Positions 18,588-59,324 of a DNA stretch of 64,000 bases are shown in pieces. Numbering within the stretch: the stretch's first letter is position 1; every line of letters starts with the position of its first letter. The notes beneath the pieces were generated by a model that saw only the letters and a program-made list of their open reading frames with translations, had not been told where the DNA came from and did no database searches. Source of the DNA: Candidatus Bathyarchaeota archaeon (lineage in GTDB: Archaea > Thermoproteota > Bathyarchaeia > Bathyarchaeales > Bathycorpusculaceae). Both the position numbers and the translations under genes were made by a program. Where the stretch lies: the NCBI GenBank assembly GCA_963811105.1, contig CAWEPZ010000011.1, positions 224,001 to 288,000 on the forward strand, read 5' to 3'.

Positions 18588-19097
18588 TTATTTTGCTTTG
18601 TTGGCTTCTGCCGTTTGGAACAGGTTCTTGACAGCTTTCTGTCGGTACTTCTGCGCCAGTGTTTCTGCAGTAACGTAGGTTAAGGCTTCTTCTGGACACC
18701 ATTTGACGCATTGTGGCTCTTTGGTTTCGTTGTCTGTGCAGCTGTTGCATGTGAACACGATTTTCTTTTCTGGGTGCATGTTCATGGCGCCGAATTGGCA
18801 AGCGCTAATACACCATCCGCAGCCGTTGCAGGCTTGTTCGTCAACACGGATTATTCCGCTGTTTTCTTCTTGGCTAAGTGCGTCTCTTGGGCAGGCAGCT
18901 ACGCATGCTGGTTCCTCGCAGTGTCTACAAGTGATTGCCATGTTTATTAATGGACCCATACGCATTGCGCGTATTCGTGACTTGGTTGGGTTGAAGGTTT
19001 TTTCGTTAACCATACTGCAAGCGTACTCGCAGACCAGGCAGCCGATACATTTTTCTGGGTCTGCTGTTACGAATTTTCTGTCTTGTGGGCGTACCAT
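18588..19097 (-). CDS. 4x[4Fe-4S] electron-transfer subunit (DmsB/HydN-like) of AOR
   Basis: Four CxxC...CxxxC motifs; adjacent to aor. Confidence 0.9.
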   Translation of the reverse strand: MVRPQDRKFVTADPEKCIGCLVCEYACSMVNEKTFNPTKSRIRAMRMGPLINMAITCRHCEEPACVAACPRDALSQEENSGIIRVDEQACNGCGWCISACQFGAMNMHPEKKIVFTCNSCTDNETKEPQCVKWCPEEALTYVTAETLAQKYRQKAVKNLFQTAEANKAK

Positions 19098-19098
19098 A

Positions 19099-21018
19099 TT
19101 AATTTCCTCCTACAGTTGCTTCTACCGTTTGAGGCTTTGCAATTTGAGCAGCTTTCATTGCGTCTTCAGCAATGTACGCCAAGTCACCGAGGCCTAACTG
19201 TTGCAAGCGCTCAACGGTTGGGATACCGTCAACGGTCCATCCTCGTGAAGCATAGTAATCATCTAAACCAATTGCCATTTCTTCGTCGCTGACACAAACA
19301 CCTTTTGCTGGGCCTTCGTCCGGCACGGGGAAATTCTTTATCTTGTAGGGTACATCATCGAATTTGCGGGTCCCTTTTCCCTCGCGTATGTTGAATAGCC
19401 TTGCCAAGTTTTCGATTCTATCGCCGTCTTTGATCATTTCTTCAACGGTAATTGGGATGCCAGTTGCCAAAGTGTAATAGTTAATCAGATCTTTCCAGCC
19501 GTCATAGTATGTGCCTCTACTGAATTTGCAGACGATAAGTGAGTCAATAATGTTGTACATGTGGCTTTCTTCAGTGATCATTTTGCCTCTGCCTTTCTCA
19601 ATTTTGAAGCGGTTTACTTTGCCTTTAACGTCAGGTGAGTAAGCGCCGTTTCTGAGGTGACATGCGCCTCTGAACGAGACACTAAAGCCAAGTGCAGCAG
19701 TTTTGAGTGTTCGCAGGTCGTAGCCTGGCAGTTCTAAGCCTTTAATGTGGCAAGCGTACTTGTAAGCATCTCCGCCGATTAATTCAGCAGCTCTTGCAAC
19801 TCCTTCTGCAAGTATATTGCCTAGCCAGCCTTCGCGTTTGCCGATTTTGTGAATTATTTGGATCAGGGCTTCAGCGTTTCCGAATTTGAGGTCAATTCCG
19901 TCAGTTTGTTCCTTCGTGATTATGCCGTGCTCATAGAGATCCATTGCGAATGCAACGACAACGCCGATTGATATGCCATCCATGCCGTATTCGTTTACGA
20001 TGCGCATGGCCTCGATTATAGCGTCTAATCTGTCGACGCCGCAGAGTGGTCCCATGCTCCATAGACACTCGAACTCAAGCCTTGAAGTTGAGCCCTTATA
20101 TGGTCCCTCTGGGACAACGCCAATATGGTCACAACGCATACCGCAAGTTGCGCAGCCTACAATTTTCTTAACATAATGCTCATTGAAGTATTCACCGCTG
20201 ACTTTATTTGCGCCTTCAAAAGTAGCATTAGTCCAGTTCCTTGTTGCTAGCGCTGATAACGAGTTGAGGACCAAAACGTTTTCAGGCGTCCCTAAGGTCT
20301 TGTATTTCTTGGTAGATGGACCCTTCATTCTTTCATAAATCATTTTGACAAATTCTTTGAAACCATCAAGGTTTGCAACGTTAACATCATGTGTTCCACG
20401 AACTGCAACTGCCTTAAGGTTCTTTGAGCCCATGACTCCACCCATACCACTTCTTCCAATAGCTCGGAATTCATCATTTATAATGGCTGCAAACCTGCAG
20501 AGTTTCTCTCCTGCCTCGCCAATGGCTGAGACACGGATGTAAAAGTCGCCTAGTTCACTTCGGATTTTGTCATCGGTCTCTTTAACGGAAGCGTTCTTTA
20601 AGTATTCGGCATTTCGGATTTCAACTTTGTCATCGTCTAGCCAAAGGTAGGATAGTTTGGGTGCTTTGCCTTTGATTACCACAGCGTCGTAGCCTGCTCG
20701 TTTCAGGTCTGGACCGAAGAAGCCGTGAGCTTCTGCATTGCCGATACCACCTGTGGCGGGAGATTTGGACACGACGGCGTAGCTGTTGCCGCCCGTTGGC
20801 CCCATCGTGCCGCTGAGTGGACCAGTTAAGTAAATTAACGGGTTATCAGGGTCATAGGGGTCTGTGCCTGGTTTTGAATTGTCAAATAGTAAGCGGATGC
20901 CTAAGCCTATTCCGCCAATGTAGTCTTTAGCCATCGTTTCTGATAATGGCTCTGTTTTTATTTCTCCCGTTGTGAGGTTAACATGTAAAATTTTTCCTGC
21001 GTAAGCAAACATGCTCAT
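19099..21018 (-). CDS. aor: Tungsten aldehyde:ferredoxin oxidoreductase family
   Basis: SKSPATG, GRSGMGGVMGSKNLKA, CATCGMRC, GMDGIS, RGACHL. Confidence 0.93.
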   Translation of the reverse strand: MSMFAYAGKILHVNLTTGEIKTEPLSETMAKDYIGGIGLGIRLLFDNSKPGTDPYDPDNPLIYLTGPLSGTMGPTGGNSYAVVSKSPATGGIGNAEAHGFFGPDLKRAGYDAVVIKGKAPKLSYLWLDDDKVEIRNAEYLKNASVKETDDKIRSELGDFYIRVSAIGEAGEKLCRFAAIINDEFRAIGRSGMGGVMGSKNLKAVAVRGTHDVNVANLDGFKEFVKMIYERMKGPSTKKYKTLGTPENVLVLNSLSALATRNWTNATFEGANKVSGEYFNEHYVKKIVGCATCGMRCDHIGVVPEGPYKGSTSRLEFECLWSMGPLCGVDRLDAIIEAMRIVNEYGMDGISIGVVVAFAMDLYEHGIITKEQTDGIDLKFGNAEALIQIIHKIGKREGWLGNILAEGVARAAELIGGDAYKYACHIKGLELPGYDLRTLKTAALGFSVSFRGACHLRNGAYSPDVKGKVNRFKIEKGRGKMITEESHMYNIIDSLIVCKFSRGTYYDGWKDLINYYTLATGIPITVEEMIKDGDRIENLARLFNIREGKGTRKFDDVPYKIKNFPVPDEGPAKGVCVSDEEMAIGLDDYYASRGWTVDGIPTVERLQQLGLGDLAYIAEDAMKAAQIAKPQTVEATVGGN

Positions 21019-21133
21019 TTTTCCCTCATTGTTATTTAGCTGAGTCATTTGAAAAGTATATTAAGTTAATGGCTAATTTATCTAAAATTTCACGTTTCCC
21101 GCCGACGTGTTTTTAATTGCATAACGCAAGAAA

Positions 21134-41618: not shown

Positions 41619-41620
41619 TT

Positions 41621-43285
41621 TTATTCTTCCTCCTTCTGCTTCTTGAAGCATTTGCCTGCTTCGCATTTCTTTTCGACTATATGAGTAAGGTATTCGTCTT
41701 TGAAGTATCGAAGTGTAGTTATAACTGGGTTAGGAGCTGTTTGACCAAGACCGCAAAGGCTTGCATCGCGTATGAATACACCTGATTTTTCGAGAGTGGC
41801 AATATCTTCTATTTTTCCATCGCCAGTAGTAATTTTATCATATATGTCTTTAATCCGGGCTAAGCCTGCTCTGCATGGAGTACATTTGCCGCACGATTCA
41901 TCTACGCAGAATTCAGTAAAGAACCGTGCAGTGTCAACCATGCAGGAATCCTCATCAAGAACTACTATTCCGCCTGAACCCATGATTGCTCCGACCTTTG
42001 TTAATGAGTCGTAGTCAATTGGAGATTCAAGCAATGTTTGAGGTAAGCAACCGCCTGATGGACCGCCGACCAAAACAGCTTTGAATTTTTTGCCGTTCGG
42101 TACTCCACCCCCGATTTCAAACACTACCTCTCTTAAGGTTATTCCCATCGGTACTTCGATGAGTCCTGGATTGTTAACTTGGCCTGTTAATGAAAAGCAT
42201 TTGGTTCCTGTGCATCTTGATGTCCCCATCTTTGAGAACCATAAGCCGCCGTTCTGAATGATTAGAGGGATGTTGGCTAAGGTTTCAACGTTCTGTATGA
42301 GGGTTGGTTGTTGCCATAAACCAGAATTCGCGGGATATGGCGGACGAGGACGAGGCATTGCTCTGCGACCTTCGACCGAGGCTAGGATAGCTGTTTCTTC
42401 TCCCGCGACAAATGCACCAGCGCCAAATCGTAGTTCAAGGTCAAATTTGAACGTCCCCATTTCCAGAATGTTTTCGCCAAGCAAAGACATTGATTTTGCT
42501 TGAGCAATGGCTTTTTGTAAAGTTTGAATAGCCAAAGGATACTCTGACCTGATATAGATATAGCCTTTTTCTGCCCCAATCGCGTAGGCAGCGATAAGCA
42601 TACCTTCAATGATCGCATGCGGATCAGCCTCAGCAAGAGTTCGGTTCGCGAAAACACCCGGGTCTCCTTCATCTAAATTCGCGACAATATATTTGGGAGT
42701 ATTATGTGCCCTAGATACAAGAGTCCACTTTTGTCCTGTTGGAAAACCAGCTCCTCCTCGACCTCTGAGACCGCTGGTCCTAATTTCGTAAATTATTCCT
42801 TGCGGAGTCATGGTTGCAAGGCATTTCGCTAAGGCAGAGTAGCCTCCCGCTGATATATAATCTTGAATTCTTGAGGGGTCAATTTTTCCAGCATTTCGCA
42901 GAACAAGCCTATGTTGCTTTGTGAAGTAAGCTTCGTTCTTGTACAGCATGTCTTTAACTGGTAAACCAAGAACTATGTGGTCACGGACTATTTCTCTTAC
43001 TTTTTCTGGGGTTACGCTTTGATAGAGGTAATCTCCTGGTTCTATCAGCACTGCGGGACCAACGGAGCATGTGCCGATACAGCCTGTTCGTGCGACTTTG
43101 CATTCGTTATCTACGCCAAATTCTTTTACAGCATCTTCAAATGCTTTTAGTACTTTAAATGCTCCAAATGGAACACATCCGCTTGAACAGCAAACGTTAA
43201 TTCGGTATTTGTAACCTCTCTGAAAATCAACTTCTTGTTCAGCTATTCTTTGAAGATCATCAAGCTTCAACTTTGACTCCTCCAA
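41621..43285 (-). CDS. hoxF: Hox diaphorase flavoprotein (NuoF-like)
   Basis: N-terminal thioredoxin-like 2Fe-2S domain, GRGGAGF, DEGDPG, GEETA, SCGKCTPCR, SLCGLG. Confidence 0.92.
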   Translation of the reverse strand: MEESKLKLDDLQRIAEQEVDFQRGYKYRINVCCSSGCVPFGAFKVLKAFEDAVKEFGVDNECKVARTGCIGTCSVGPAVLIEPGDYLYQSVTPEKVREIVRDHIVLGLPVKDMLYKNEAYFTKQHRLVLRNAGKIDPSRIQDYISAGGYSALAKCLATMTPQGIIYEIRTSGLRGRGGAGFPTGQKWTLVSRAHNTPKYIVANLDEGDPGVFANRTLAEADPHAIIEGMLIAAYAIGAEKGYIYIRSEYPLAIQTLQKAIAQAKSMSLLGENILEMGTFKFDLELRFGAGAFVAGEETAILASVEGRRAMPRPRPPYPANSGLWQQPTLIQNVETLANIPLIIQNGGLWFSKMGTSRCTGTKCFSLTGQVNNPGLIEVPMGITLREVVFEIGGGVPNGKKFKAVLVGGPSGGCLPQTLLESPIDYDSLTKVGAIMGSGGIVVLDEDSCMVDTARFFTEFCVDESCGKCTPCRAGLARIKDIYDKITTGDGKIEDIATLEKSGVFIRDASLCGLGQTAPNPVITTLRYFKDEYLTHIVEKKCEAGKCFKKQKEEE

Positions 43286-43748
43286 GCGCTTGTTTTATTT
43301 TTTCTATTACCATTTCCTTCGTTGCTTTGCCAATTACTTCGTCGTCGACAACAATGTTTGGTGCCATAGCGCATGCACCGATACAGCGTGTGAGAAGAAG
43401 AGAAAGTTTCCCATCAGCAGTTGATCCTCCACGTTTAACATTAAATTCTTGTTCAACAGCTTCCATGATTTCTTCAACACCCTTCACGTAACAGGCAGTT
43501 CCTAAGCAACCAGTCACTATATGTTCACCTGGTTTTCTAAGCTTGAAAAAGCTGTAGAAAGTGGTAACCCCGAAAACGTGACTTGGAGGAATGTTTAGAG
43601 AACCCGCAACATCCATCAATAGATCTTTATCTAAATATCCGTAGATTTCTTGGGCGCGATGGAGAATTTCTAAAAGAGCACTTTCTTGATAATTATACTC
43701 TTTCAAAACTTTTTCGAGCAAAACACGTCTTTTATCATTCTCAGTCAA
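43260..43748 (-). CDS. hoxE: Hox 2Fe-2S subunit (NuoE-like)
   Basis: TFYSFF, CLGTACYVKG, RCIGAC..AP. Confidence 0.9.
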   Translation of the reverse strand: MTENDKRRVLLEKVLKEYNYQESALLEILHRAQEIYGYLDKDLLMDVAGSLNIPPSHVFGVTTFYSFFKLRKPGEHIVTGCLGTACYVKGVEEIMEAVEQEFNVKRGGSTADGKLSLLLTRCIGACAMAPNIVVDDEVIGKATKEMVIEKIKQALGGVKVEA

Positions 43749-44061: not shown

Positions 44062-46884
44062 TTAAGCAGAAGATGCATCTGACTGATCTTGAATATTACC
44101 CTTGCTTTTGTCTGATACTTCCGCAACTTGTTGCCCTTGATTTGCTATTTTCTCGGAAATAATCGTTGTTGTTTGACATTGTACGTTCATGTCCTCGTTT
44201 TTTAGGTCTAAAACGCCTTTCGCATTTCCATCACTTAGGTATTCAAGTCTGAAACCCATCTTTTTCATAAGGTTTAAAGCTCGATAATTGTCTGGCAGCA
44301 TTATTGCATAGACGTCTTCAATGCCTTTTTCCTTAGCAATGTCAAGCACGTGATCGACCATTTTTGTGCCTAAACCTAAACCTTGCCAGTAATCTGTCAC
44401 TATAAAGGACATTTCACCGCTTTTTCCATCAGGCTCGATATTTACTCGGGCGACGCCTAAGATTTTTCTTTTGCCATTTTCGTTTAATTCAGCTACTATT
44501 GCTATTTCTCGGTCATAATCAATGTTGCAATAGCGTACACGAACTTCGTGTGGCGTGTCTTTTAGTACCTGGAAAAATCGATAGCGAATCGATTCCTCAG
44601 AGAAGCTTTGGAACATTCCCAGCCACAAGGGTTCGTCTTCTGGTTTGATAGGGCGCAACACCACTTCTTGACTGTTTCTCAGCGACCAAGTTAACTCATA
44701 TTTCTTTGGGTAGGGACTGATAACCAAATGCTCATGAGGTTCATATTTCTTGCAAATGGCGTCTTTATTAATCACTATTCTGGCATCAAGAATGCAGGCG
44801 TCTTTCTCATTTATCAGCAATGGATTAATGTCAATTTCTTTTACCTGTGGAAAATCAATCAGAAACTGAGAGAAAAGAAGCAATGTTTCATCGAGGCGTT
44901 TAAGGTCTACAGGAGGTGCATTTCGGTATCCCTTCAGAAGTTGGTAAACTTTTGTTTCTTCCATCATGCGGTGGATAAGTGTCGTGTTTAGCGGCGGCAA
45001 CCCAATGGCATAATCTTTGAAAAGTTCAACCCCAACACCACCCATGCCAAATAGAATCACTGGACCAAAAACTGGATCGGTTTTTCCACCGATTATAAGT
45101 TCATACCCTTTTTTCTCCACCATTGGCTGTACGGTAACTCCGAGTATTTGCGCATTCGGATTGTAAGCGGTTGCTTTTTGAATAATCATTTCAAAAGCTT
45201 TGCGAACCTCGTTTGCAGAATTCACATTTAATATGACCCCGCCAGCATCGCTTTTATGAACAATCTGCGGAGAAAGAATCTTTAAAACTACAGGGTACCC
45301 CATTTCTTGTGCTAAAGAAACTGCCTCATCAGTTCTAGTGGCAACAGCGGTTTTGACGACTGGAAAATTATAGTATTTTAAGATTTTTTTGGCTTCATTT
45401 TCACTTAATAATTCGCGATTTTCAGCGGCGGCGTTTCTTATTATCGATAGTATTGGGCGTTTAGGTGGTGAAGAGTCCAGTGGTAGTTCTTCAGGAGTCT
45501 GATAGAGAAGATCGAGATTGACTTGGTAATTGTACATATACATGTATGTTTTGATTCCTTGTTCAGGCGTGGAATAAGTCGGGATGTTGTTTGCGTTAAA
45601 TATCTTGTTTGCTTCTTGCACCGCATCAAAGCCCATGAAAGATGTAAGAATAGTTTTGTTCTGATATGATTTGCCTCGAACAAGTTCAGCTATAGCTTTA
45701 GCGATTTCAACTGGCTCAGAGCCTGCTTGGTGAGTTAGAATAATGAGTATCCCGTCAATTCCGTTATCATTAAGGCAGGATTCAACCGCTGCTTTATACC
45801 GGTCTGCCTTAGCGTCTCCAAGAACGTCTATAGGGTTTCCATGGCTCCAAAAAGCAGGTAAAACACCGTTAAGGGAACTCAAGGTTTTCTCGTTAAGTTT
45901 AGCCAGTTTGCCGCCTTGAGCAATCAAAGCGTCGGTAGCCATTACTCCTGGCCCGCCGGCGTTGGTTATTATTGCAAGTTTTGACCCTTTGGGTAATGGT
46001 TGAGTTCCTAACACTTCAGCTGCGTTGAATAAGTCAGCTATTTCCTGGACTCTAACTATTCCCGCTCGTTTGAATGCTGCATCGTAAATATCATCCTCGC
46101 CTGAAAGTGACCCCGTGTGGGAAGCGGCGGCTTTTGCACTTTCAGCGAATTTTCCTGATTTCACGACAATTATGGGTTTGGTTCTTGCAAAGTGTCTTGC
46201 TGCGCTCATGAATTTTCTTGCGTCAGTTATTCCTTCCACGTACATGAGAATGCTTTTGGTCTTTGGGTCAGAACCGAAGTAATCTATTAAGTCGCCAAAG
46301 TCAACATCAATCATAGACCCAACCGAAACAAAATTGCTAAAGCCAATGTTTTCGTGGATTGCCCAGTCAAGGATAGCTGAACCTAAAGCGCCGCTTTGAG
46401 ATAGGAAAGCGATGTTGCCTGGTTTGGGCATTTTATCCAAGAAGGTTGCGTTAAGATTTAGGCGGGGACGAATTATGCCTATGCAGTTTGGCCCGATAAC
46501 GCGAATATTATATTTTTTTGCGACTTCAAGAATTCTCTGTTCTAAAGCTTTTCCTTCAGAACCTGTTTCCTTGAAGCCTGCAGAAACAACAATTACTCCT
46601 TTTACATCTGCTCGTCCACATTCTTCTATTACATCGGGAACTGTTTTTGCGGGAGTCGCTATTATGGCTAAATCAACGGGATCTGGAATCTGATCAACCG
46701 TTTTGTAGGTCTTAACGCCTAAAATCTCTGGCTTGCGGATGTTCACGAAGTATACTTTGCCAGCATAACCCAGTTTGGTAAAATTTTTGACGATGGCGTA
46801 ACCGACTGATCCTTCAGCGTCGCTGGCTCCGATGATGGCTATATTTTTGGGGTTGAAGATCTTTTCAAGATTTAAGGTGCCCAT
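44062..46884 (-). CDS. ADP-forming acyl-CoA synthetase (alpha+beta) fused to C-terminal GNAT (Pat-like)
   Basis: GPNC.G, SQSGA, ASHTG, NPID, HKSD.GGV, DINPL, then RPIKPED, WQGLGLGT. Confidence 0.9.
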   Translation of the reverse strand: MGTLNLEKIFNPKNIAIIGASDAEGSVGYAIVKNFTKLGYAGKVYFVNIRKPEILGVKTYKTVDQIPDPVDLAIIATPAKTVPDVIEECGRADVKGVIVVSAGFKETGSEGKALEQRILEVAKKYNIRVIGPNCIGIIRPRLNLNATFLDKMPKPGNIAFLSQSGALGSAILDWAIHENIGFSNFVSVGSMIDVDFGDLIDYFGSDPKTKSILMYVEGITDARKFMSAARHFARTKPIIVVKSGKFAESAKAAASHTGSLSGEDDIYDAAFKRAGIVRVQEIADLFNAAEVLGTQPLPKGSKLAIITNAGGPGVMATDALIAQGGKLAKLNEKTLSSLNGVLPAFWSHGNPIDVLGDAKADRYKAAVESCLNDNGIDGILIILTHQAGSEPVEIAKAIAELVRGKSYQNKTILTSFMGFDAVQEANKIFNANNIPTYSTPEQGIKTYMYMYNYQVNLDLLYQTPEELPLDSSPPKRPILSIIRNAAAENRELLSENEAKKILKYYNFPVVKTAVATRTDEAVSLAQEMGYPVVLKILSPQIVHKSDAGGVILNVNSANEVRKAFEMIIQKATAYNPNAQILGVTVQPMVEKKGYELIIGGKTDPVFGPVILFGMGGVGVELFKDYAIGLPPLNTTLIHRMMEETKVYQLLKGYRNAPPVDLKRLDETLLLFSQFLIDFPQVKEIDINPLLINEKDACILDARIVINKDAICKKYEPHEHLVISPYPKKYELTWSLRNSQEVVLRPIKPEDEPLWLGMFQSFSEESIRYRFFQVLKDTPHEVRVRYCNIDYDREIAIVAELNENGKRKILGVARVNIEPDGKSGEMSFIVTDYWQGLGLGTKMVDHVLDIAKEKGIEDVYAIMLPDNYRALNLMKKMGFRLEYLSDGNAKGVLDLKNEDMNVQCQTTTIISEKIANQGQQVAEVSDKSKGNIQDQSDASSA

Positions 46885-47029
46885 TGATTTAACCTTCTGC
46901 GTATGTCGCAACAGCATAAACTAAAAAAGCTTACTGATTCAAAATTTTGATTTGTAATATCAGCGATATAGAAAAAGTGAAAACTAATCTTTAAAGATAT
47001 ACTTGGGCATAATAGCTTGGAAGCTTTGT

Positions 47030-49855: not shown

Positions 49856-50593
49856 TTGCTAAAGTGCACTGAAGTCTCAAAGCAGTTTGGAGGACTTCAA
49901 GCATTAAAAAAAGTTGATTTCACAATAAACGAAAATGAGATAGCTGGGCTTGTGGGACCCAATGGCTCAGGCAAATCTACCTTGCTTAACCTTATTAGTG
50001 GGGTTTACAAGCCTGACTCGGGGCAAATAATTTTTCTAAACGAAGACATCAGTAAACTTCCATCGTACAAGATTTGTGCTAAGGGCATAACGAAAACGGC
50101 TCAAACGGTTCAATCATTTCCAGAAATGACAACTACCGAAAACGTTCTTACAAGCGTTCTTTTTAATGAAAAAAAGTTCACGAACAAAGTTGATGCAAAA
50201 TCGAGGGCGCAGGAGCTTCTAGGTTTTGTTGGATTAAGCAAAGAAAAGTTTGATTTACCAGTCAAAAAACTAAATGTTGTTGAGTTGAGGCGTATACAGT
50301 TGGCGAAAGCGTTGGCGACTAATCCTAAGCTGCTTCTTCTAGATGAGTTACTTACGGGTTTAACGCCTAAAGAATGCGATGAAGCCATTGAACTAATAAG
50401 ATTAATCAATAAACAAGGGGTAACTGTGCTCATCGTCGAACATGTGATGCGTGTGATCATGGGATTATGTGACCATGTAGTTGTGTTGCATCATGGCGAG
50501 AAAATCTGTGAAGGATCCCCTAAACAGGTTGTTAATGATGAGAACGTCGTGAAGGTTTACTTGGGCAAAAGAGCTGCAATGTGTGAGGAGTAA
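49856..50593 (+). CDS. livG: Branched-chain amino acid-type ABC ATPase
   Basis: FGGLQAL, GPNGSGKST, LLLDE, EHVM, VYLG. Confidence 0.9.
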   Translation: MLKCTEVSKQFGGLQALKKVDFTINENEIAGLVGPNGSGKSTLLNLISGVYKPDSGQIIFLNEDISKLPSYKICAKGITKTAQTVQSFPEMTTTENVLTSVLFNEKKFTNKVDAKSRAQELLGFVGLSKEKFDLPVKKLNVVELRRIQLAKALATNPKLLLLDELLTGLTPKECDEAIELIRLINKQGVTVLIVEHVMRVIMGLCDHVVVLHHGEKICEGSPKQVVNDENVVKVYLGKRAAMCEE

Positions 50594-50595
50594 AA

Positions 50596-51300
50596 GTGTT
50601 AGAAATCCAAAATTTAGCAGCTGCTTATGATATGGTGCAAATTCTTTATGACGTTAGTTTTAAAGTGGAAGAGAAAGAAATAGTCAGCATAATTGGGCCT
50701 AACGGCGCGGGAAAAACTACCTTAGCTAAAACAATAATGGGTTTTATGCATCCCAAAAACGGAACAATCACGTTTAAAGGCGAAAACATAAGCAAGTTGC
50801 CTACATACGATATAGTCAAAAAGGGTTTAACAATGATTCCTGAGGGCAGGGAAATCTTTCCCCGCATGACCGTCGATCAGAACCTGCTTTTGGGCGCTTA
50901 CACAATAAAAGAAAAAGAGAAGATTCAAGAAACTCGTGAGAAGGTTCTCCAGATTTTTCCCGTGCTTAGAAAGAAGGAGAAATCTTTAGCTCAGACACTC
51001 AGCGGTGGCGAGCAGCAGATGCTTGTTATTTGTCGAAGTTTAATGTCTAATCCTCAAATGTTAATTTTAGATGAGCCTTCATTGGGACTTGCACCCATTA
51101 TTGTGGAGAAAGTGTTGGATACTATTCGCACAATCAATGATGAAGGCGTAACTGTTTTGCTTGTTGAACAGAACATACGCGATTCGTTAAATGTTGCTGA
51201 TAGAGGTTACGTTTTGGAAGAAGGCCGAATTATTTTAGAAGGAAAGAGTAGGGAACTTTTATCTAATAGTCATATAAAAGAAGTGTATCTAGGCCTTTGA
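50596..51300 (+). CDS. livF: Branched-chain amino acid-type ABC ATPase
   Basis: GPNGAGKTT, PEGR.IF, LSGGEQQM, DEPSLGLAP. Confidence 0.92.
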   Translation: MLEIQNLAAAYDMVQILYDVSFKVEEKEIVSIIGPNGAGKTTLAKTIMGFMHPKNGTITFKGENISKLPTYDIVKKGLTMIPEGREIFPRMTVDQNLLLGAYTIKEKEKIQETREKVLQIFPVLRKKEKSLAQTLSGGEQQMLVICRSLMSNPQMLILDEPSLGLAPIIVEKVLDTIRTINDEGVTVLLVEQNIRDSLNVADRGYVLEEGRIILEGKSRELLSNSHIKEVYLGL

Positions 51301-51319
51301 AAACAGAGAGGAAAAAGCG

Positions 51320-52636
51320 ATGAACCGCAAATACTGGAATGAAAAAACCGAAACCATGCCCGCTGAAGAAACAAAGAAGCATCAACTAAGAAAATTGCAG
51401 TTGCAGGTCAAACATTGCTATCTCAACAGCACTTTTTACAGGAAAAAATTTGACGGCATCGGATTAAAGCCTCAAGATATAGAGTCACTTGATGACCTCA
51501 AAAAAATTCCTTTCACAGTTAAAGCTGATCTAAGAGATAATTACCCATTCGGCATGGTTGCAGTTAAGTCGGATGAAATATGCGAGATTCATGCTTCAAG
51601 CGGCACTACGGGAAACCCGATAGTTGGTGCTTATACAAGAAGCGACTTAGACGTTTGGCAGGAATTGATGGCTCGATCCATCTACACCACAGGCGGAAGA
51701 CAGCAAGATGTTATCCACATAGCCTACGGCTATGGCTTATTCACGGGCGGCATGGGCTTCCATTATGGCGCTCAAAAACTTGGAGCCAAAATTATTCCTG
51801 CAAGCGGCGGGATGACCCAGCGTCAAATAAAACTAATGAGAGACTTGGACGCCACAATACTTGCCTGCACGCCAAGCTTCGCAGTTTACCTTGCTGAAAC
51901 AATGGTTCAAGAAGGTATAGACCCAAGCAAAGATCTCAAACTGAAGTCTGGAATGTTTGGCGCAGAGCCTTGGTCAGACAAAATTAGAGAAAGAATCGAG
52001 AAAGACCTAAACATTGAAGCGTTTGATGTTTATGGGTTAACTGAGCTTTGCGGTCCAGGTGTTTCCATTGAATGCAATGAGCATAAGGGATTACATATTG
52101 CTGAAGATCACTTTATTGTGGAAACAATTAATCCTGACACTTCTGAAGTATTGCCTCCTGGAGAAGAAGGCGAATTAGTTTTCACAACTTTAACTAAAAC
52201 AGGGTTGCCTTTGCTTAGGTATCGGACAAGAGATATTTCTAAACTTGAATTTGAAAAATGCGGATGCGGGCGCACTCACGCCAGAATGATGCGGGTTCAC
52301 GGCAGATCAGATGACATGTTGATTATTCGTGGAGTAAACATATTCCCCTCGCAAATAGAGTATGCGGTTATGTGCTTCTCAGAACTGGCAGCTCAATACC
52401 TTATAGTTGTCGACAGACCTGGAGCTTTGGACACATTTGTTGTTAAAGTTGAATTATGTGATAAAGCTTTCACCGATCCAAAGTTAGATCAGAATTCACT
52501 GAAGAATGATATTCAAAAGAGAATACACATTGTAACGGGTATAACGGCAGATGTTGAAATTGTTAAGCCCGGTGAGCTTCCGAGAACGGAAGGAAAAGCA
52601 AAAAGAGTTCTGGACTTGCGCAAAGGCAAAATGTAA
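51320..52636 (+). CDS. paaK: Phenylacetate--CoA ligase
   Basis: HASSGTTG, YGYGLFTGG, FGAEPW, YGLTE, RYRTRD, EGKAKRV. Confidence 0.93.
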   Translation: MNRKYWNEKTETMPAEETKKHQLRKLQLQVKHCYLNSTFYRKKFDGIGLKPQDIESLDDLKKIPFTVKADLRDNYPFGMVAVKSDEICEIHASSGTTGNPIVGAYTRSDLDVWQELMARSIYTTGGRQQDVIHIAYGYGLFTGGMGFHYGAQKLGAKIIPASGGMTQRQIKLMRDLDATILACTPSFAVYLAETMVQEGIDPSKDLKLKSGMFGAEPWSDKIRERIEKDLNIEAFDVYGLTELCGPGVSIECNEHKGLHIAEDHFIVETINPDTSEVLPPGEEGELVFTTLTKTGLPLLRYRTRDISKLEFEKCGCGRTHARMMRVHGRSDDMLIIRGVNIFPSQIEYAVMCFSELAAQYLIVVDRPGALDTFVVKVELCDKAFTDPKLDQNSLKNDIQKRIHIVTGITADVEIVKPGELPRTEGKAKRVLDLRKGKM

Positions 52637-52647
52637 AGGATCTTTAT

Positions 52648-54840
52648 ATGACCTCTAAGATTGGGGTAGACAAGCCTGGCAGATTTGCCTTGCTTAACGG
52701 TGATGAAGCAGTTGCACGAGGCGCAGTGGAATCAAGTGTTAAAGTTGCAGCTTCGTATCCCGGAACGCCTGCTACTGAAATTTTGGAAACCATAGCTGAA
52801 GTATCGAAAGAATTTGATATTTACGCTGAATGGAGCATAAATGAGATTGTGGCCGCGGAAGTTGCTGCAGGCGCTTCAATGACGGGCGTGAGATCCATTG
52901 TTTCTATGAAACATGTTGGTTTAAACGTTGCCGCAGACGCTGCAATGACGTTGGCTTATACTGGTGTTGAAGGAGGAATGGTAATTGCGGTCTGTGATGA
53001 TCCAGCATTGCATAGCAGCCAAAACGAGCAAGATACCAGGTATTTTGCAGTTCACTCGAAACTGCCATTGCTTGACGCTGGAAACCCGCAAGAAGCTCTC
53101 GACATGTCGCGTGAAGCCTTTGAACTGAGCGAAAAACTGCATTTGCCAGTGATCTTGCGGTTAACAACTAGGGTTGCACATGGAAAATCAAAAGTTAAAC
53201 TTGGCAATATACAGAAAATCAATCGGAAATCTGAGTTTGACAAGAAAGGTTCGAAATGGGTGATGGTGCCCTCAAACGCGATTAGACAACACAGAGTTTT
53301 GGAGGGCAGATTGGCGGAAGCAAAAAAGCTTGCTAATTTTTCCAAGTTTAACTTCGTTGAGGACAACGGTTGCGAAATAGGCATTGTTGGAAGTGGGGTT
53401 GGATATTATTATGCGCGCTCGATCTTGGATGCAAAAAAGTTTTCGTGGCTAAAGTTAGGTTTTGTTTACCCATTTCCAGATGAAACAGTTAAAAAATTTG
53501 CTTCTAAAGTGAAGAAGTTAATTGTAATTGAAGAGCTTCGACCTTACATGGAGGAAAACATCCAGCGCCTAAATCTTCAAGTCTTGGGAAAAATTGATCT
53601 TGGGTTACAGGAAATTGGTGAATTCACACCTGATAATGTTCGCCAAGCATTTGCAAATATGGGATTAGCCGAGAAAGCGGAAGCGCCAGAGCCACTGGAT
53701 TTGCCTCTTCGTCCGCCAGCACTTTGCCCAGCTTGTCCCCACAGAGCATTTTATTATGCGTTAAATATGGTTAACCAGTACGTTAACTGTGATAACGAGA
53801 AATGCGTTGGCTGCGACATATGCGAGTATGCTTGCTCTTTTGAAAAAGAAAGAGTCTTCAACCCTCTTAAATCCAGGATTCGCTCGGTTAGGATTGGACA
53901 AACCTTCAACACAGCGGTAACGTGTAAAGGCTGTATAGATGTTCCTTGCATGGTAGCTTGTCCAGAAAAAGCTCTGATGCGGTCAAGTGAAACTGGCGCC
54001 ATAATGGTTGATGAAGAAAAATGTAACGGTTGTGGATGGTGTATTGAAGCCTGCGAGTATGGTGCTGTAACGATGCAACCTGACAAACGCAAAGTTATCA
54101 TTTGCGACACTTGTGGCGGAGACCCAAAATGCATCCCGCTTTGCCCTGAGAGCGCCTTGAGCTTGACTGGAAAATCAAATGATAAAATCGTCACTGGCGA
54201 CATTGGCTGCTATACGCTAGGTGTGTTACCTCCTGTAAATGCTGTTCAGACATGCCTTTGTATGGGGGCTGGAATCTCTCAAGCTGCAGGCATGATTCAT
54301 GCAGGAATCAAAGAAAAAGTATTTGCGGTTATTGGCGATTCAACGTTTTTCCATGCAGGAATGCCTGGACTTATGAATATTGCTTACAACAAATCGAACG
54401 TCTGCGTTATCATAATGGATAATAGCACTGTCGCTATGACTGGGCATCAGCCAACGCCGAGCTCAGGAAAAACTGCTATGGGTGCGGATGCTAAGATATT
54501 GAGAATTCAAGATGTTGCTAAAGGTCTTGGAATAGACAAAGTCGAAATCGTTGACCCCTATGACATTAAAGCAACAACCAGGGCATTGAGAGAAATTCTT
54601 GATTATAATGGTCCATCAGTTATTATCTCTCAGAAGCCCTGTCCACTGTTGATTGAGAGAGGTAAAGCGAGAGAAGTTTTGGAGAAATGTAATGGATGCG
54701 GGGTCTGCGTTAAAGCCTTTGGTTGCCCAGCAATCAGTCTTTCAAATGAACGGGCCGAGATAGATGCCACTTTGTGCTATGGATGTGGCGTATGTGAAAC
54801 CGTGTGTCCCTTTGAAGCTATAAGGAGAAAAGAAAAATGA
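52648..54840 (+). CDS. iorA: Indolepyruvate:ferredoxin oxidoreductase alpha subunit with inserted polyferredoxin
   Basis: YPGTP, MKHVGLNVA, SSQNEQD, LCPACPH, GDIGCY, IGDSTF.H, C-terminal 2x4Fe-4S; extra domain at 53776-54165. Confidence 0.92.
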   Translation: MTSKIGVDKPGRFALLNGDEAVARGAVESSVKVAASYPGTPATEILETIAEVSKEFDIYAEWSINEIVAAEVAAGASMTGVRSIVSMKHVGLNVAADAAMTLAYTGVEGGMVIAVCDDPALHSSQNEQDTRYFAVHSKLPLLDAGNPQEALDMSREAFELSEKLHLPVILRLTTRVAHGKSKVKLGNIQKINRKSEFDKKGSKWVMVPSNAIRQHRVLEGRLAEAKKLANFSKFNFVEDNGCEIGIVGSGVGYYYARSILDAKKFSWLKLGFVYPFPDETVKKFASKVKKLIVIEELRPYMEENIQRLNLQVLGKIDLGLQEIGEFTPDNVRQAFANMGLAEKAEAPEPLDLPLRPPALCPACPHRAFYYALNMVNQYVNCDNEKCVGCDICEYACSFEKERVFNPLKSRIRSVRIGQTFNTAVTCKGCIDVPCMVACPEKALMRSSETGAIMVDEEKCNGCGWCIEACEYGAVTMQPDKRKVIICDTCGGDPKCIPLCPESALSLTGKSNDKIVTGDIGCYTLGVLPPVNAVQTCLCMGAGISQAAGMIHAGIKEKVFAVIGDSTFFHAGMPGLMNIAYNKSNVCVIIMDNSTVAMTGHQPTPSSGKTAMGADAKILRIQDVAKGLGIDKVEIVDPYDIKATTRALREILDYNGPSVIISQKPCPLLIERGKAREVLEKCNGCGVCVKAFGCPAISLSNERAEIDATLCYGCGVCETVCPFEAIRRKEK

Positions 54841-55424
54841 AACTTGACGTAGTTTTCAGCGGCGTCGGCGGCCAAGGCGTTGTAGTTTTAAGTGATATTT
54901 ATTGCGAAGCTGCCATGTTGGATGGTCTTGATGTTGCGAAGGCGGAGATTCATGGCATGGCGCAGCGTGGAGGGTCGATTGTTGCATATGCCAGAATTGG
55001 CGATAAGGTTGAGTCTCCATTAATTGAAACAGGAAAAGCAGATGTGCTTGTAGGCTTTGAAATTCTTGAAACTGCAAGAGCCCTTCCAATGTTAAAGAAA
55101 AAGGGTAACGTTATTGTTAACATGAAGTACATTCCCCCAAGCTGTAGTTTTTCAGGAGTTAAACCCAAAAAAACAGCAGAATTGCTTCAGATTCTAAAGT
55201 CCAAAGGCGATGTTCATGAGGTAGATGGCATGGGCATTGCTGAAAAACTTGGGAACCTCTTGGTTGTTAATACTATTCTTCTTGGAGCCTTATCTGCCCT
55301 TCCTGAAATTCCAGTAAAAGTGGAGTCTTTTCAGCAGGCGATTGCCGGCAGGCTTAAAGAAAAATATGTAAATTTGAATCTGAAAGCTTTCCAGTTAGGC
55401 AGAGAAAGCGTGTTAATCAGTTAA
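54837..55424 (+). CDS. iorB: Indolepyruvate:ferredoxin oxidoreductase beta subunit
   Basis: GVGGQG, EIHGMAQRGGS, NLKAF..G. Confidence 0.93.
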   Translation: MKLDVVFSGVGGQGVVVLSDIYCEAAMLDGLDVAKAEIHGMAQRGGSIVAYARIGDKVESPLIETGKADVLVGFEILETARALPMLKKKGNVIVNMKYIPPSCSFSGVKPKKTAELLQILKSKGDVHEVDGMGIAEKLGNLLVVNTILLGALSALPEIPVKVESFQQAIAGRLKEKYVNLNLKAFQLGRESVLIS

Positions 55425-55477
55425 TTTTATTAGCAATTACGTTTGATATAGCAAAGAAAAACTGAGAGGATGTATAC

Positions 55478-56863
55478 TTGAATAAGAAAATACTCGCTTT
55501 AGTCGTCGTTGTAATTATTGCAGTTGCAGCAGTTGCAGCTATAGAATTATCTACAAAACCAGCACCATCAGCTGAAGCCCGAAATATCAAGATTGGCTTA
55601 GTTGCTCCACTGTCTACCTCAATTGGACAAGACATGCTAAAAGCATCGCAAATGGCAGTTAACGAGATCAATGATGGAGGCGGAATCTCTGTTTCTGATT
55701 GGAATACCAAAGTCAACATAAGTTTAGTTACTGTTGATACTGGAACCGATACAGTTCCAGCCGATGCCGTAACAGCAGTAACAAAAGCAGTTCAACAAGA
55801 CCAAGTAGATATGCTAATCGGCGGTTATGGAAGTGCAGCAACTCTCGCTGACGAAGTCGTAGCTATCAACAACAAGGTACCTTTCATAATCACTGGAGCG
55901 TCAAACCAGCTTGTCACGAGACGAGGACCACAGGGCAACTATGGCGGCTTTGGAACAGATGGCACCTACAGTATCACTGATGCGGCGGGAATAGAGGGAA
56001 TGACTTACATGTTCCACTATTGCACAACAACCTACGATTACGCTAAGACAGTTGTTGAGTTTTTAAACCAAGAAATGAAGCCTATGGTAGCTGCAGACAG
56101 AAACCTCAGTCTTGCGTTATATTACCGCGATGATTCCTTCGGGAATGCAGTTGAACAAGCCGCTAAGTATTGGATTCAGAACGAAAACCTGCCAATTAAT
56201 ATCGTAGCAGACAGAAAACACCCAACTTCTTCAAACAGTTTCCAAACTGACCTAACAGTAATCAAAGGTGACCATCCAGACGCAGTTTTTGTCGCAGACA
56301 ATCCAGACATAACACCACAAGTGATCCAACAAGGATGGAATGATGTAGGACTAAAGACCGTTTACATTGCAGTTGAAAACAATCAAGACCCAGTATTCTA
56401 CAATCTATTAGGAAGTGTTGGTGACGGGCAACTTTTGGAGTCAAAGATGGACCCATTCCAAGTACCTTCTTATCTGCCGGCAGTACAAACATATTCTCAA
56501 AAATTCAACCAAACTTACAATGTAGCGCCAGGAATGATGGGAGTTGACACATATGACGCATTTTACATAGCTAAGAACGCAATTCAAAATGCTGGAACCG
56601 TTGATAAAGCAGCTGTACGGCAAGCAATAGAAAACACCAAAATGGACCAAAGACTCATAATGACTGCTACCGGCAAAATTCAATTCAGCACAGGCGTTAA
56701 CTATCATGAAATTGGCCCAGTTACATTCATGGAGCAACTCAAATGGAATGCTGAAACCAATAAGCTTGAATCGCAAATTATTTGGCCAGCGACTGAACCA
56801 GCCGTAAGCAATTTCAAACAAGCAGACTTCAGATTGCCAACAGGCTACCAACCTGGAAGCTAA
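55478..56863 (+). CDS. LivK-type ABC substrate-binding protein
   Basis: N-terminal anchor, IKIGLVAPLS, IGGYGS, YDA. Confidence 0.88.
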   Translation: MNKKILALVVVVIIAVAAVAAIELSTKPAPSAEARNIKIGLVAPLSTSIGQDMLKASQMAVNEINDGGGISVSDWNTKVNISLVTVDTGTDTVPADAVTAVTKAVQQDQVDMLIGGYGSAATLADEVVAINNKVPFIITGASNQLVTRRGPQGNYGGFGTDGTYSITDAAGIEGMTYMFHYCTTTYDYAKTVVEFLNQEMKPMVAADRNLSLALYYRDDSFGNAVEQAAKYWIQNENLPINIVADRKHPTSSNSFQTDLTVIKGDHPDAVFVADNPDITPQVIQQGWNDVGLKTVYIAVENNQDPVFYNLLGSVGDGQLLESKMDPFQVPSYLPAVQTYSQKFNQTYNVAPGMMGVDTYDAFYIAKNAIQNAGTVDKAAVRQAIENTKMDQRLIMTATGKIQFSTGVNYHEIGPVTFMEQLKWNAETNKLESQIIWPATEPAVSNFKQADFRLPTGYQPGS

Positions 56864-56990
56864 ACCAAGCTCCCTTCCAAAATTTTTTTTTCTTCTTTAT
56901 TTTTCTAAAATTAAAAAACATTTTAAATAGCTATGTGAGGAATAAGAAAACTAATAGTTCACAATTAATGACCGAGGGAATAACTGTATC

Positions 56991-57869
56991 ATGGATATTA
57001 CTGCGGGAACAATAGTCTTAACACTAATTTGGGGCGTTGCAATCGGTTGCATTTACATGTTACTTGCTTCTGGATTAAACATTATTTTTGGCGTCATGAA
57101 ACTTGTCAATTTTGCTCATGGACAGTTTCTTATGATAGGTGCGTATCTTACTTGGACCGTTTCGGTTGCTGCAGGCCTAAACGCTTATCTGGCAATTCTT
57201 GTCTCGATGGCAATAGTAGCTGGGATAGGCATACTTATTGAACGATTAACTTTTCGAAGGGTCTTGGGAACTGATAAGCTCAATGAGATTTTTGTTAGCC
57301 TCGGCTTGATTTACATTTTTGAAAATGCTGCCCTACTTATTTGGGGTGACCAGTCTCAACAGATTAAAAGCCCCTTTTACGGTATGAGTTTGAATCTGCC
57401 AAGCATATCTATAACATATGATAGAATTATAGCTGTTTTCGTAGTGGTTGCTGTTCTAGTAGGTTTCGGTTTACTGCTTTATAAAACAAAAATTGGCTTA
57501 GCAATGCGGGCTACCAGCCAAATCAACAGAACAGCTATGCTTATGGGAATAAACGTGGAAAGAATCTATTTGGTTACTTTCGGTTTAGGATCGGCTTTAG
57601 CTGCAACAGCGGGTGGATTATATGGAATCATTTTCTCTTTTAACTCGCAAACAGGAGCAATGCCAACAATCATAGCCTTCGCGATAATCATTCTTGGTGG
57701 GTTAGGAAGCATACGGGGTGCTATTGTTGGCGGATTGCTTTATGGTATCACAGAACAGATGGCGACATTGTTTCTGGGGGGAATTTGGTCAAGTGCGGTT
57801 GCTTTTGCCTTGCTGATAATTGTCCTTATAATTCGGCCGAACGGAATATTCGGTGAAAAAGGAGAATAA
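56991..57869 (+). CDS. livH: ABC permease
   Basis: GLNIIFGVM.LVNFAHG, GLAMRA, LGGLGS, RPNGIFG. Confidence 0.92.
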   Translation: MDITAGTIVLTLIWGVAIGCIYMLLASGLNIIFGVMKLVNFAHGQFLMIGAYLTWTVSVAAGLNAYLAILVSMAIVAGIGILIERLTFRRVLGTDKLNEIFVSLGLIYIFENAALLIWGDQSQQIKSPFYGMSLNLPSISITYDRIIAVFVVVAVLVGFGLLLYKTKIGLAMRATSQINRTAMLMGINVERIYLVTFGLGSALAATAGGLYGIIFSFNSQTGAMPTIIAFAIIILGGLGSIRGAIVGGLLYGITEQMATLFLGGIWSSAVAFALLIIVLIIRPNGIFGEKGE

Positions 57870-58965
57870 CATGCCAATATTAAAGCAGCTCTCTATTTTC
57901 ATGCGTTCAAGAAGCTTCCAATTTTTAATTGCAAGTTTCGTGGTTCTAGCACTTATTCCATTATTCATAACTGACAAGTTCTTCCTGTTCGTTTTTACAT
58001 TGATATTTATCTTTGCAATCTATGCTGCAAGCTGGAATTTTCTGGCTAATTCAGGGCAAGGTTCACTCGGACATGCGGCTTTCTTAGGAATCGGCGGGTT
58101 CTCATCAGCAATTATTGGCGGCAGAATCTCCAATGCCATAATTGGAACCTTCGGTGCTAATGCCATGCAGCCCGGGATTCTGTCTTTGCTAATTCAACTT
58201 TCAGTTCTTCTTATCGGAGGTTTGATTTCTGCCGGAATCGGCTTGTTGATTGGTTTGGCTTGTGTACGGTTGAAGGCTTGGTATTTGGCCATGGTTACTT
58301 TCGGGTTTTCAGTGATAGCTTTTACCTTGTCCAGCCAGTTTAATTCCTTCACTAATGGAATAGATGGTTTTCAAACTGCGATACTTGTGACCGGGGGTTA
58401 CCCTTTTTACATTTTGGTTGTTTCTTTTGCTGCGGTTTCCATTGCGGTTATGTATTTGATTATGAAGTCTCGCATGGGGTTGGCTTTTCGGGCAATACAT
58501 GGCAATGAAGCTGAGGCCCGCATGATTGGGGTTAATACGGTCAAGTATAAGTTGATAGCTTTTGTTATTAGCACATTCTTTGCTGGTATCGCAGGAGGAT
58601 TATACTCTTATTTCTTTCAGTTTATCGATAATTCAGTTTTCTCGCCTGCTAACTCGTTTTTGCCGCTGATTATGACTGTTATCGGTGGCTTGGGCACTGT
58701 AAGCGGACCCATCATAGGTGCCTTTTTCCTTACGTCAGTAGGGCAAATCCTAGGCACGCAGAGTGTTACTCACGCCTTGAGCACAACACTTGGACCGCTC
58801 TTCCCAAAAGTTGGTTACGTTGGCCCTCCAATAACATATCTAATTATCGGTGTAATTCTATTAATTATTGTTATTTTCTCGCCTAAAGGGTTAACGTCGC
58901 TGTTCCGCAAATTCATCAATTACATAGTAACGGAAGATAAACCTAAAGGAACCAAGACCAAATGA
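57853..58965 (+). CDS. livM: ABC permease
   Basis: GQ.SLGHAAF.GIG, YLAMVT, IGGLG...GP..GA, PKGL. Confidence 0.92.
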   Translation: MKKENNMPILKQLSIFMRSRSFQFLIASFVVLALIPLFITDKFFLFVFTLIFIFAIYAASWNFLANSGQGSLGHAAFLGIGGFSSAIIGGRISNAIIGTFGANAMQPGILSLLIQLSVLLIGGLISAGIGLLIGLACVRLKAWYLAMVTFGFSVIAFTLSSQFNSFTNGIDGFQTAILVTGGYPFYILVVSFAAVSIAVMYLIMKSRMGLAFRAIHGNEAEARMIGVNTVKYKLIAFVISTFFAGIAGGLYSYFFQFIDNSVFSPANSFLPLIMTVIGGLGTVSGPIIGAFFLTSVGQILGTQSVTHALSTTLGPLFPKVGYVGPPITYLIIGVILLIIVIFSPKGLTSLFRKFINYIVTEDKPKGTKTK

Positions 58966-59324
58966 AGGGAACAGATTATTTCGCTGAAGCCTTAGGAATC
59001 CAAGTATTAGAAATCAAAGACGGCTACGCGAAAGTAACTATGAAAGTGGAAAAAAACCATACTAACGCACTGGACTTCACACACGGCGGTGTCATTTTCT
59101 CGCTGGCAGACTACGCTTTTGCGCAAGCATGTAATTATGGCGACAATGTTGCCGTAGCAGTTCAAGTTAGCATAAACTTTCTCAGGCCCTCGGTTGAAGG
59201 TGACCTGTTGACGGCAGAAGCGGTTAGGGTTTCTGACGGAAAAACAATGGGTTTGTATCAAGTAATGGTTAAGAAAGAGGAAAAAATCATTGCTTCCTTC
59301 TCAGGATTAGCATTTAAAAAGTAG
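58962..59324 (+). CDS. paaI: PaaI-type hotdog thioesterase
   Basis: N...FTHGGVIFSLADYAFA.ACN. Confidence 0.9.
   Translation: MKGTDYFAEALGIQVLEIKDGYAKVTMKVEKNHTNALDFTHGGVIFSLADYAFAQACNYGDNVAVAVQVSINFLRPSVEGDLLTAEAVRVSDGKTMGLYQVMVKKEEKIIASFSGLAFKK

Follow-up and report, generated by a model that had tools for sequence, protein, structure and literature searches.

Enzymes belonging to the OFOR (2-oxoacid:ferredoxin oxidoreductase) family are usually thought to pass their electrons to diffusible ferredoxin. Indolepyruvate:ferredoxin oxidoreductase (IOR), whose subunits IorA and IorB (TIGR03336 and TIGR03334) were reportedly first described in Pyrococcus furiosus, fits this design, its alpha subunit consisting of a POR_N domain, a thiamine pyrophosphate (TPP) binding domain and a C-terminal 2x[4Fe-4S] ferredoxin domain. 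Aldehyde oxidoreductases (AOR) and their relatives work with a different kind of redox protein, a small subunit built as a double ferredoxin with four cluster motifs (AorA, chain C of 8c0z; the iron-sulfur subunit in 6x6u and 6x1o, which we take to be the small subunit of P. furiosus WOR5; and BamC, chain E of 4z3w). Here we describe a locus that combines both designs. It lies in a 64,000-nt stretch of a Candidatus Bathyarchaeota archaeon genome (assembly GCA_963811105.1, contig CAWEPZ010000011.1, positions 224,001 to 288,000; hereafter the window), where the alpha subunit gene of an arylpyruvate-type IOR, iorA, carries an in-frame polyferredoxin insert related to the AOR small subunits.

The window protein scored 695.6 bits on TIGR03336 (IOR_alpha; cut-off 650.9) when two stretches of the match were summed, and a profile search of the source genome's contigs returned it as the sole IorA above that cut-off. 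The two stretches (model positions 4-375 and 377-595) lie about 400 nt apart on the genome, within a single open frame free of stops, and the residues between them carry 16 Cys in four cluster motifs. A preliminary interpretation of these letters, the sequence-only reading, had proposed such a 16-Cys in-frame insert at 53776-54165; the limits found here are 53776-54177, so the proposal was right to within 12 nt. Pfam assigned PF01855 (POR_N) to residues 25-197, PF02775 to residues 518-659 and Fer4_7 to residues 680-724, and the insert itself was matched by PF13247 (residues 423-506) and Fer4_11, besides resembling the N-terminal four-cluster modules of HydN and DmsB-type proteins. The position of the split agrees with alignments against 23 canonical IorAs, which share the domains, the four conserved Cys described below and the IorB neighbour but have only a short linker where the window form has 134 extra residues; in these alignments the insert stands in place of about five residues between ...YYALNxV and DKIVTGDIGC. 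The distance from the CxxC to the D[IV]GC motif is 25-36 aa in canonical forms (both patterns were present in 18 of 20 fetched sequences, plus one from locus L036) versus 152-157 aa in insert forms (17 of 19 by pattern and 19 of 19 in the alignment), as expected from the earlier statement that the usual linker is short.

When 50 IorAs were aligned, of which 27 have the insert and 23 are canonical, C360, C363, C521 and C665 proved to be the invariant Cys outside the ferredoxin domains (50 of 50). By homology with pyruvate:ferredoxin oxidoreductase (PFOR) we take these residues to be the ligands of a proximal [4Fe-4S] cluster, their counterparts in the Desulfovibrio africanus enzyme presumably being C812, C815, C840 and C1071. 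When a canonical IorA relative was aligned to that enzyme (1b0p), the alignment stopped at residue 1071, beside the fourth Cys. The insert occupies the loop between the second (C363) and the third (C521) of these Cys, at the N-terminal edge of the TPP-binding fold. It had previously been assigned to the TPP-binding region, but it lies outside the TPP-binding fold proper. The residues of the TPP motif (GDS...N; G563, D564, T566, D591 and N592) are invariant in the same alignment, and the Cys of the C-terminal ferredoxin domain, which is retained as had been anticipated, are invariant or nearly so. Counting one presumed proximal cluster, four in the insert and two in the C-terminal domain, up to seven clusters are possible per IorA chain, and we infer that the insert does bind its clusters. 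The linkers on either side of the insert are about a dozen residues each, so that one end of the domain would have to lie close to the proximal cluster, presumably within tunnelling distance of it. An AlphaFold2 model of the window IorA, built from a 50-row alignment, reached a mean predicted local distance difference test (pLDDT) of 86.1 and a predicted template modelling score (pTM) of 0.82, with blocks of the insert at 64-82. Foldseek grouped the chain with PFORs (6cio, E 3e-21), and no IOR structure turned up in sequence or fold searches of solved structures.

Table 1. Features of the iorA locus and of the AOR gene pair in the window (positions are those of the window).
Feature	Coordinates	Strand	Basis or remark
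AOR (649 aa, 19099-21048) and 169-aa four-cluster small subunit (18588-19097)	18588..21048	-	
livG- and livF-like ATP-binding cassette (ABC) ATPases	49856..51300	+	same order in loci L016 and L019
paaK-like phenylacetate-CoA ligase (AMP-forming), directly upstream of iorA	51320..52636	+	
iorA, 730 aa, predicted indolepyruvate/arylpyruvate:ferredoxin oxidoreductase alpha subunit with insert	52648..54840	+	open reading frame, Pfam, NCBIfam
C360-x2-C363, Cys 1 and 2 of the presumed proximal [4Fe-4S] motif, 13 residues ahead of the insert	53725..53736	+	invariant in 50/50
134-aa insert, aa 377-510, AOR-small-subunit-type polyferredoxin, predicted 4x[4Fe-4S]	53776..54177	+	profile split; matches to PF13247 and to further Fer4 families
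Cys motif I (C386, C389, C392, C396)	53803..53835	+	residues 387-391 in the modelled AOR contact
FNPLKSRIR, aa 404-412	53857..53883	+	most conserved part of the insert apart from the Cys; centre of the modelled interface with AOR
Cys motif II (C426, C429, C434, C438)	53923..53961	+	
Cys motif III (C459, C462, C465, C469)	54022..54054	+	
Cys motif IV (C486, C489, C495, C499)	54103..54144	+	
TPP-binding (PP) domain after the insert: GDIGC521, GDSTF...DN TPP motif, C665	54178..54642	+	PF02775, invariant columns
Retained C-terminal 2x[4Fe-4S] ferredoxin domain, 8 Cys, aa 677-727	54676..54828	+	Fer4_7 aa 680-724
iorB, 195 aa; start overlaps the iorA stop	54837..55424	+	PF01558 (130 bits)
livK-like binding protein, livH and livM permeases, 4HBT/PaaI-type thioesterase, downstream of iorB	55478..59324	+	

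The best matches of the insert in the PDB are solved iron-sulfur subunits of the AOR family, namely 6x6u_B (E 1.2e-27), 6x1o_B (likewise about 1e-27) and 8c0z_C (E 2.9e-23), a chain named potential subunit of aldehyde oxidoreductase; 4z3w_E, the electron-transfer subunit of a benzoyl-CoA reductase, was also matched (E 1.2e-5). In a search of the genomes of the class, the closest free relatives of the insert are frames of 163-243 aa from sister families of the same order, with 56-65% identity, and all seven of those checked lie directly downstream of an AOR gene. The same arrangement is found in the window, where a 169-aa protein that is 49% identical to the insert over 134 aa (E 3e-50) is encoded directly downstream of an AOR gene, the pair being 32 kb from iorA and outside its operon. 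The likeness to this AOR partner subunit had been pointed out from the letters alone, and the searches bear it out. Three AORs are encoded in the source genome, one of the window type, one on contig C1 and one without a small subunit; the small subunits of the first two are 49-51% and 59% identical to the insert, respectively, and the FNPxKSRIR motif is common to the insert and to AOR small subunits. Furthermore, the 27 inserts cluster together in a tree built from 108 domains (91 in the Shimodaira-Hasegawa-like approximate likelihood-ratio test, SH-aLRT), where they are placed in an unresolved fork with a Bathyarchaeal AOR-adjacent clade. Two fusions of AOR with a polyferredoxin of the insert type, P0211 (897 aa) and P0243 (758 aa), with the polyferredoxin C-terminal in one and N-terminal in the other, provide independent evidence that this kind of polyferredoxin is the usual adaptor of AOR. 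All these comparisons make the interpretation of the insert as a captured paralogue of an AOR small subunit well supported. The source genome also encodes a solo 220-aa four-cluster polyferredoxin (G000:C11:1430028-1430690), 51% identical to the insert, with no AOR gene beside it.

The insert differs from the AOR small subunits in several respects. It is an internal domain, neither a separate polypeptide nor encoded beside an AOR, and it returns straight into IorA after motif IV, without a C-terminal tail. In AorA a C-terminal helix of about 20 residues joins the subunits into a filament or wire (PMC10413684), a helix that the insert lacks. The free small subunit of the window, for its part, extends about 28 residues beyond motif IV. 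In addition, a Trp that is conserved among free small subunits is variable among inserts, and the insert has gained a 17th invariant Cys, C381 (53788-53790), five residues ahead of motif I. The position of C381 is a Thr or Ser in the two free AOR small subunits of the source genome. This residue may serve as an added ligand, or it may make a contact where the insert joins IorA.

Ferredoxin-like additions to OFORs have been described before. Domain V of single-chain PFORs follows the same principle, being a ferredoxin fused into the OFOR chain that receives electrons from the proximal cluster; the window IorA keeps such a domain, whereas its insert is additional, belongs to another family, has four cluster motifs and sits at another site. 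PorE and PorF of Methanococcus are multi-cluster proteins that are encoded with an OFOR and have been tied to its anabolic (carboxylating) direction, as stated in a review (PMC13768988). Unlike the insert, which is part of the catalytic chain, they are separate and loosely bound proteins, and by analogy they may be a precedent for accessory polyferredoxins serving an anabolic OFOR. No published description of this insertion in IorA was found in our literature searches, whose scope was main texts rather than supplements, and the same review, dated November 2026, contains in the passages searched no occurrence of 'insertion' or 'Bathyarchae' (PMC13768988). Public annotations of the best 120 protein matches name the protein only TPP-dependent enzyme or IorA. 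The conserved IorA-polyferredoxin design therefore seems undescribed, as the sequence-only reading had supposed. It would represent a catalytic chain into which the adaptor of another enzyme family has been taken up, at the one loop that touches the presumed proximal cluster.

The insert is conserved well beyond the window. In all 94 insert sequences compared (the window, 18 genome loci and 75 of 80 public loci, five having been dropped because the pattern found no uninterrupted stretch) the 16 motif Cys are unchanged, as is C381, while the insert region shows 53-69% identity to the window in a 19-sequence alignment. Additionally, the conserved positions of the stretch EKExxFNPxKSRIR (aa 399-412) are retained in 86-94 of the 94 sequences. 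This conservation shows a domain that appears to have been maintained under selection since its capture. The possibilities that the insert was created by chimeric assembly, or that it is a recent insertion, neutral or in decay, were considered and rejected as extremely improbable. The insert is present in 60 genomes and in the best 80 of 159 relatives, complete chromosomes included; a 934-nt contig from an independent soil run spans both junctions, gapless over 53500-54377; no stops interrupt the matches; and all the Cys are invariant while the region diverges to 53% identity. None of the circumstances that could have undone the original proposal (a chimera, a unique or decaying insertion, or an already commonly described form of IorA) was encountered. 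An apparent variant with a deletion in the insert was also rejected: in a single contig of run X2, at depth 2.4 and with a side of 38, a joint skips 181 nt (53837 to 54019), and we interpret it as a false joining of similar Cys motifs, or as sequence from a different organism.

Regarding its distribution, the insert with both IorA flanks was found in 60 of the 401 Bathyarchaeia genomes sampled, a class in which IorA of any form is present in 250 genomes. The carriers belong to two families of a single order (51 of 104 genomes in f1 and 9 of 18 in f5; 0 of 279 in the other families); two families of an archaeal group abundant in soil and peat have retained the insert. In a search of 5.8 billion proteins the best 120 matches are almost all 728-732 aa long and 76-100% identical to the window protein, together with shorter fragments, and the named sources among them are Bathyarchaeota or Bathyarchaeia. 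A scan of one genome per prokaryote species gave the 159 insert relatives, of which the best 80 are all Bathyarchaeia-type metagenome-assembled genomes (MAGs) from peat, bog, soil and sediment, some of their records carrying the label Bathy6 or Bathy-6. No second, unrelated IorA family with the insert appeared among the best 150 of 9190 representative hits; the species-representative scan used clade-specific patterns, so that absence from other lineages remains unshown. In a protein atlas the matches were the protein's own 730-aa cluster and canonical IorAs. A 701-aa cluster named 'IorA family', at rank 14 in the atlas, has 126 members, mostly from Thermodesulfobacteriota, and exceeds the usual IorA by about 70-120 aa; it may hold a different extension or insert.

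The history of the insert was approached with an IorA tree from which the insert columns had been removed. The 27 insert forms and two insert-less forms make up one clade (support 100) on a long branch; the base of the clade is unresolved, and one state change suffices on this tree. Together with the grouping of the inserts themselves, this topology is compatible with an insert that may have had a single origin. The two insert-less proteins, from genus g6, are 62% (G346, L036:7659-9476) and 68% (G394, L054:175-1995) identical to the window IorA. In G346 the neighbourhood consists of housekeeping genes (S19e...FtsY) followed by paaK-iorA-iorB, as in some insert loci. Either these forms preserve the condition before the insertion, or they have lost the insert precisely. 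As orthologues from sister species they indicate that the core enzyme does without the insert, and as natural controls they leave the function of the arm open to direct comparison. In another genome (G253; L019, G253:C2:58000-77999, and L037) an operon of the insert type, in the order livGF-paaK-iorA-iorB-livKHM-thioesterase, lies about 10 kb from a canonical iorAB pair, which indicates that both forms can coexist as paralogues. Genome G353 gave two insert-region matches of equal score and identity (G353:C10:4227-4823 and G353:C11:5177-5773), the result of either duplication or assembly redundancy.

The reading that we favour, and which appears somewhat better than an even proposition, is that in the insert an AOR small subunit has been domesticated, providing IOR with a second port for electrons alongside its ferredoxin domain. 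According to this, the gene of an AOR-type small subunit, a double ferredoxin for four [4Fe-4S] clusters, would have been copied into the reading frame of iorA, in an ancestor that belonged to one order of Bathyarchaeia, replacing the linker of about five residues between the second and third proximal-motif Cys, and would have been kept under selection afterwards. The conventional route, from the TPP site through the proximal cluster and the C-terminal two-cluster domain to soluble ferredoxin, would remain in place, and a new route would be provided by a four-cluster arm held beside the proximal cluster by its two short linkers. Through this arm the interconversion of arylpyruvate with arylacetyl-CoA and CO2 could be coupled to a protein partner, in place of free ferredoxin or in addition to it, with the enzyme working alongside the PaaK-type ligase co-transcribed with it and, in many genomes, alongside uptake proteins of Liv type and a thioesterase.

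With respect to the partner, the catalytic subunit of AOR is the leading candidate, an assignment that we regard as tentative, because the insert is derived from AOR small subunits, keeps their FNPxKSRIR and motif-I face and was modelled as docking on an AOR of the same genome. In this regard, complex models of IorA residues 352-730 with the C1 AOR (618 aa), made with alignments of both partners, gave ipSAE values of 0.88, 0.89 and 0.88, when the best of three controls gave 0.00; of 157 solved complexes 116 attain the pass mark, and of 215 mismatched pairs 2 do so. The runs share at least 96% of their contacts, and the pLDDT of the partner is at least 93. All IorA contacts fall in the insert (387-391, 394-395, 398, 401-408, 414-415, 417-419, 421, 478, 498 and 500-501), and the AOR side of the interface includes residues 282-293, a stretch whose Cys 287, 290 and 294 are invariant in the AOR alignment. 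Motif I of the insert faces these cluster Cys in the model, like AorA on AorB, where FS1 is 11.9 A from the AorB cluster (PMC10413684).

Several observations weigh against AOR as the partner, and against a second port in general. The model held only residues 352-730 of IorA, without the N-terminal half, IorB or the second protomer; complexes of AOR with like small subunits have been solved, so that the pass may only reflect likeness to them, and close cousins of a true partner pass too. The earlier suggestion that IOR could dock onto an AOR-family enzyme retains a positive model (0.88 versus 0.00), but one of a kind with known structures, and it finds little echo in the genomes: of 98 insert loci only 3 have an AOR fragment at a distance of 3 kb or less, and no AOR gene is found near iorA in the 18 loci with 6-8 kb flanks. 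Neither test of the interface was significant, as inserts and true small subunits have the same consensus residue at 20 of 25 interface positions versus 50 of 82 others (p = 0.096) and the entropy of the interface does not differ significantly from that of the rest (25 versus 90 non-Cys positions, p = 0.69). Within the genus, one subclade shows a decayed FNP motif, and the Trp found in every one of 10 true small subunits, opposite L498 in the alignment, is the residue noted above as variable among inserts. The C1 and window AORs each own a small subunit already, and the AOR without a small subunit occurs in 5 of 17 genomes of the genus, in insert-less genomes as well, and is not co-distributed with the insert. 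Lastly, the conventional ferredoxin domain is kept, so that free ferredoxin is not obviously dispensed with and the arm is unneeded for ordinary ferredoxin coupling. As for the C1-type AOR, 176 of the 201 genomes from the order have it, and so do all 17 sampled from the genus; being nearly universal, it is uninformative about a partnership. In loci L085, L102 and L105, AOR fragments about 54% identical to the window AOR, cut by the locus end, lie on the opposite strand within about 2-3 kb of the insert region.

A stronger form of the AOR proposal, that the insert serves as the AOR small subunit and that IOR and a tungsten AOR make up one complex sharing a chain of clusters, is in our view doubtful. 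Both enzymes operate near -0.5 to -0.6 V, so that arylpyruvate oxidation could drive the reduction of arylacetate to the aldehyde, or aldehyde oxidation could pay for the reductive carboxylation of arylacetyl-CoA to an amino-acid precursor, free ferredoxin being unneeded in either direction. The far end of the arm might even plug into AorA-like small subunits to give a mixed, enzyme-decorated wire. If the arm does dock on AOR, it would be a hard-wired link between two of the lowest-potential reactions of anaerobic aromatic and amino-acid metabolism, and a natural example of modular rewiring of iron-sulfur enzymes.

Alternatively, the arm could be a redox port to a partner other than AOR, such as an NAD(P)H flavoprotein of the PadH, AorC or GltD type, a hydrogenase, another polyferredoxin or soluble ferredoxin at a second docking site, its likeness to AOR small subunits reflecting ancestry only. 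We consider this explanation, the main rival of the favoured one, rather unlikely, and it has evidence on its side. The insert matches positions 7-138 of 443 in the model of PadI (NF045766, listed by NCBIfam as 'NADH-dependent phenylglyoxylate dehydrogenase subunit beta', E 1.3e-22), the beta subunit of NAD-dependent phenylglyoxylate oxidoreductase and a member of the same OFOR family, whose first 140 or so model positions are of the insert type. The rest of PadI is presumably a TPP and proximal-cluster subunit, in which case the extra clusters would come at nearly the same place; its polyferredoxin is, on the same assumption, a terminal fusion, whereas that of the window IorA is an internal insertion. 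The score on this model (80.1 bits) is far under its cut-off of 700, so that the window protein does not belong to the PadI family. AegA and YgfT, two proteins with GltD-like modules, are matched by the insert at their N-termini as well, and the source genome has a polyferredoxin beside a pyridine-nucleotide oxidoreductase-like gene and hydrogenase gene sets within the window. The like subunit of AorABC passes electrons to the FAD subunit AorC and to neighbouring AorA subunits (PMC10413684). The absence of operon linkage and co-distribution between AOR and the insert and the non-significant tests of the AOR face point in the same direction. Set against this, no candidate partner gene is conserved beside iorAB across the 98 loci, and AOR, the sole partner modelled, passed clearly.

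An arm without an outside partner, acting as a bridge between protomers, an electron store, a means of tuning potentials or a structural prop that needs its clusters to fold, is improbable. Cys conservation would follow from folding alone, and the short linkers and the confident model of the whole fold are in line with such an internal role, but the insert-less orthologues described above show that the core enzyme manages without it, and the surface stretch EKExxFNPxKSRIR is kept beyond what the folding of a ferredoxin repeat would usually need.

Our analysis of gene context suggests the metabolic setting of the favoured second port. In the window iorA belongs to the string livG-livF-paaK-iorA-iorB-livK-livH-livM-thioesterase (49856-59324), and the window IorB scores 166-190 bits on the NCBIfam IorB equivalogs, under their cut-offs of 206-237. 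Across the 98 insert loci surveyed, many of them with 3-kb flanks only or reaching contig ends, full-length PaaK is present in 91 (partial in 5), full-length IorB in 87 (partial in 9) and full-length LivK in 62. The PaaK-type ligase upstream in most loci is the context from which activity on arylpyruvates with ferredoxin is predicted, and the whole arrangement would fit arylacetate uptake and CoA activation followed by reductive carboxylation to arylpyruvates, or a catabolic flow in reverse.

Lastly, other redox and acyl-CoA genes are found elsewhere in the window. Genes for the large and small subunits of [NiFe]-hydrogenases occur in two sets at 34830-43748 on the minus strand, one with HdrB/C-like CCG and ferredoxin proteins and the other with NuoE/F/G-like subunits (a Hox-type module). 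At 44062-46917 on the same strand, a 950-aa protein combines a part like ADP-forming acyl-CoA synthetases (CoA-binding, ligase and ATP-grasp) with a C-terminal GNAT acetyltransferase domain.

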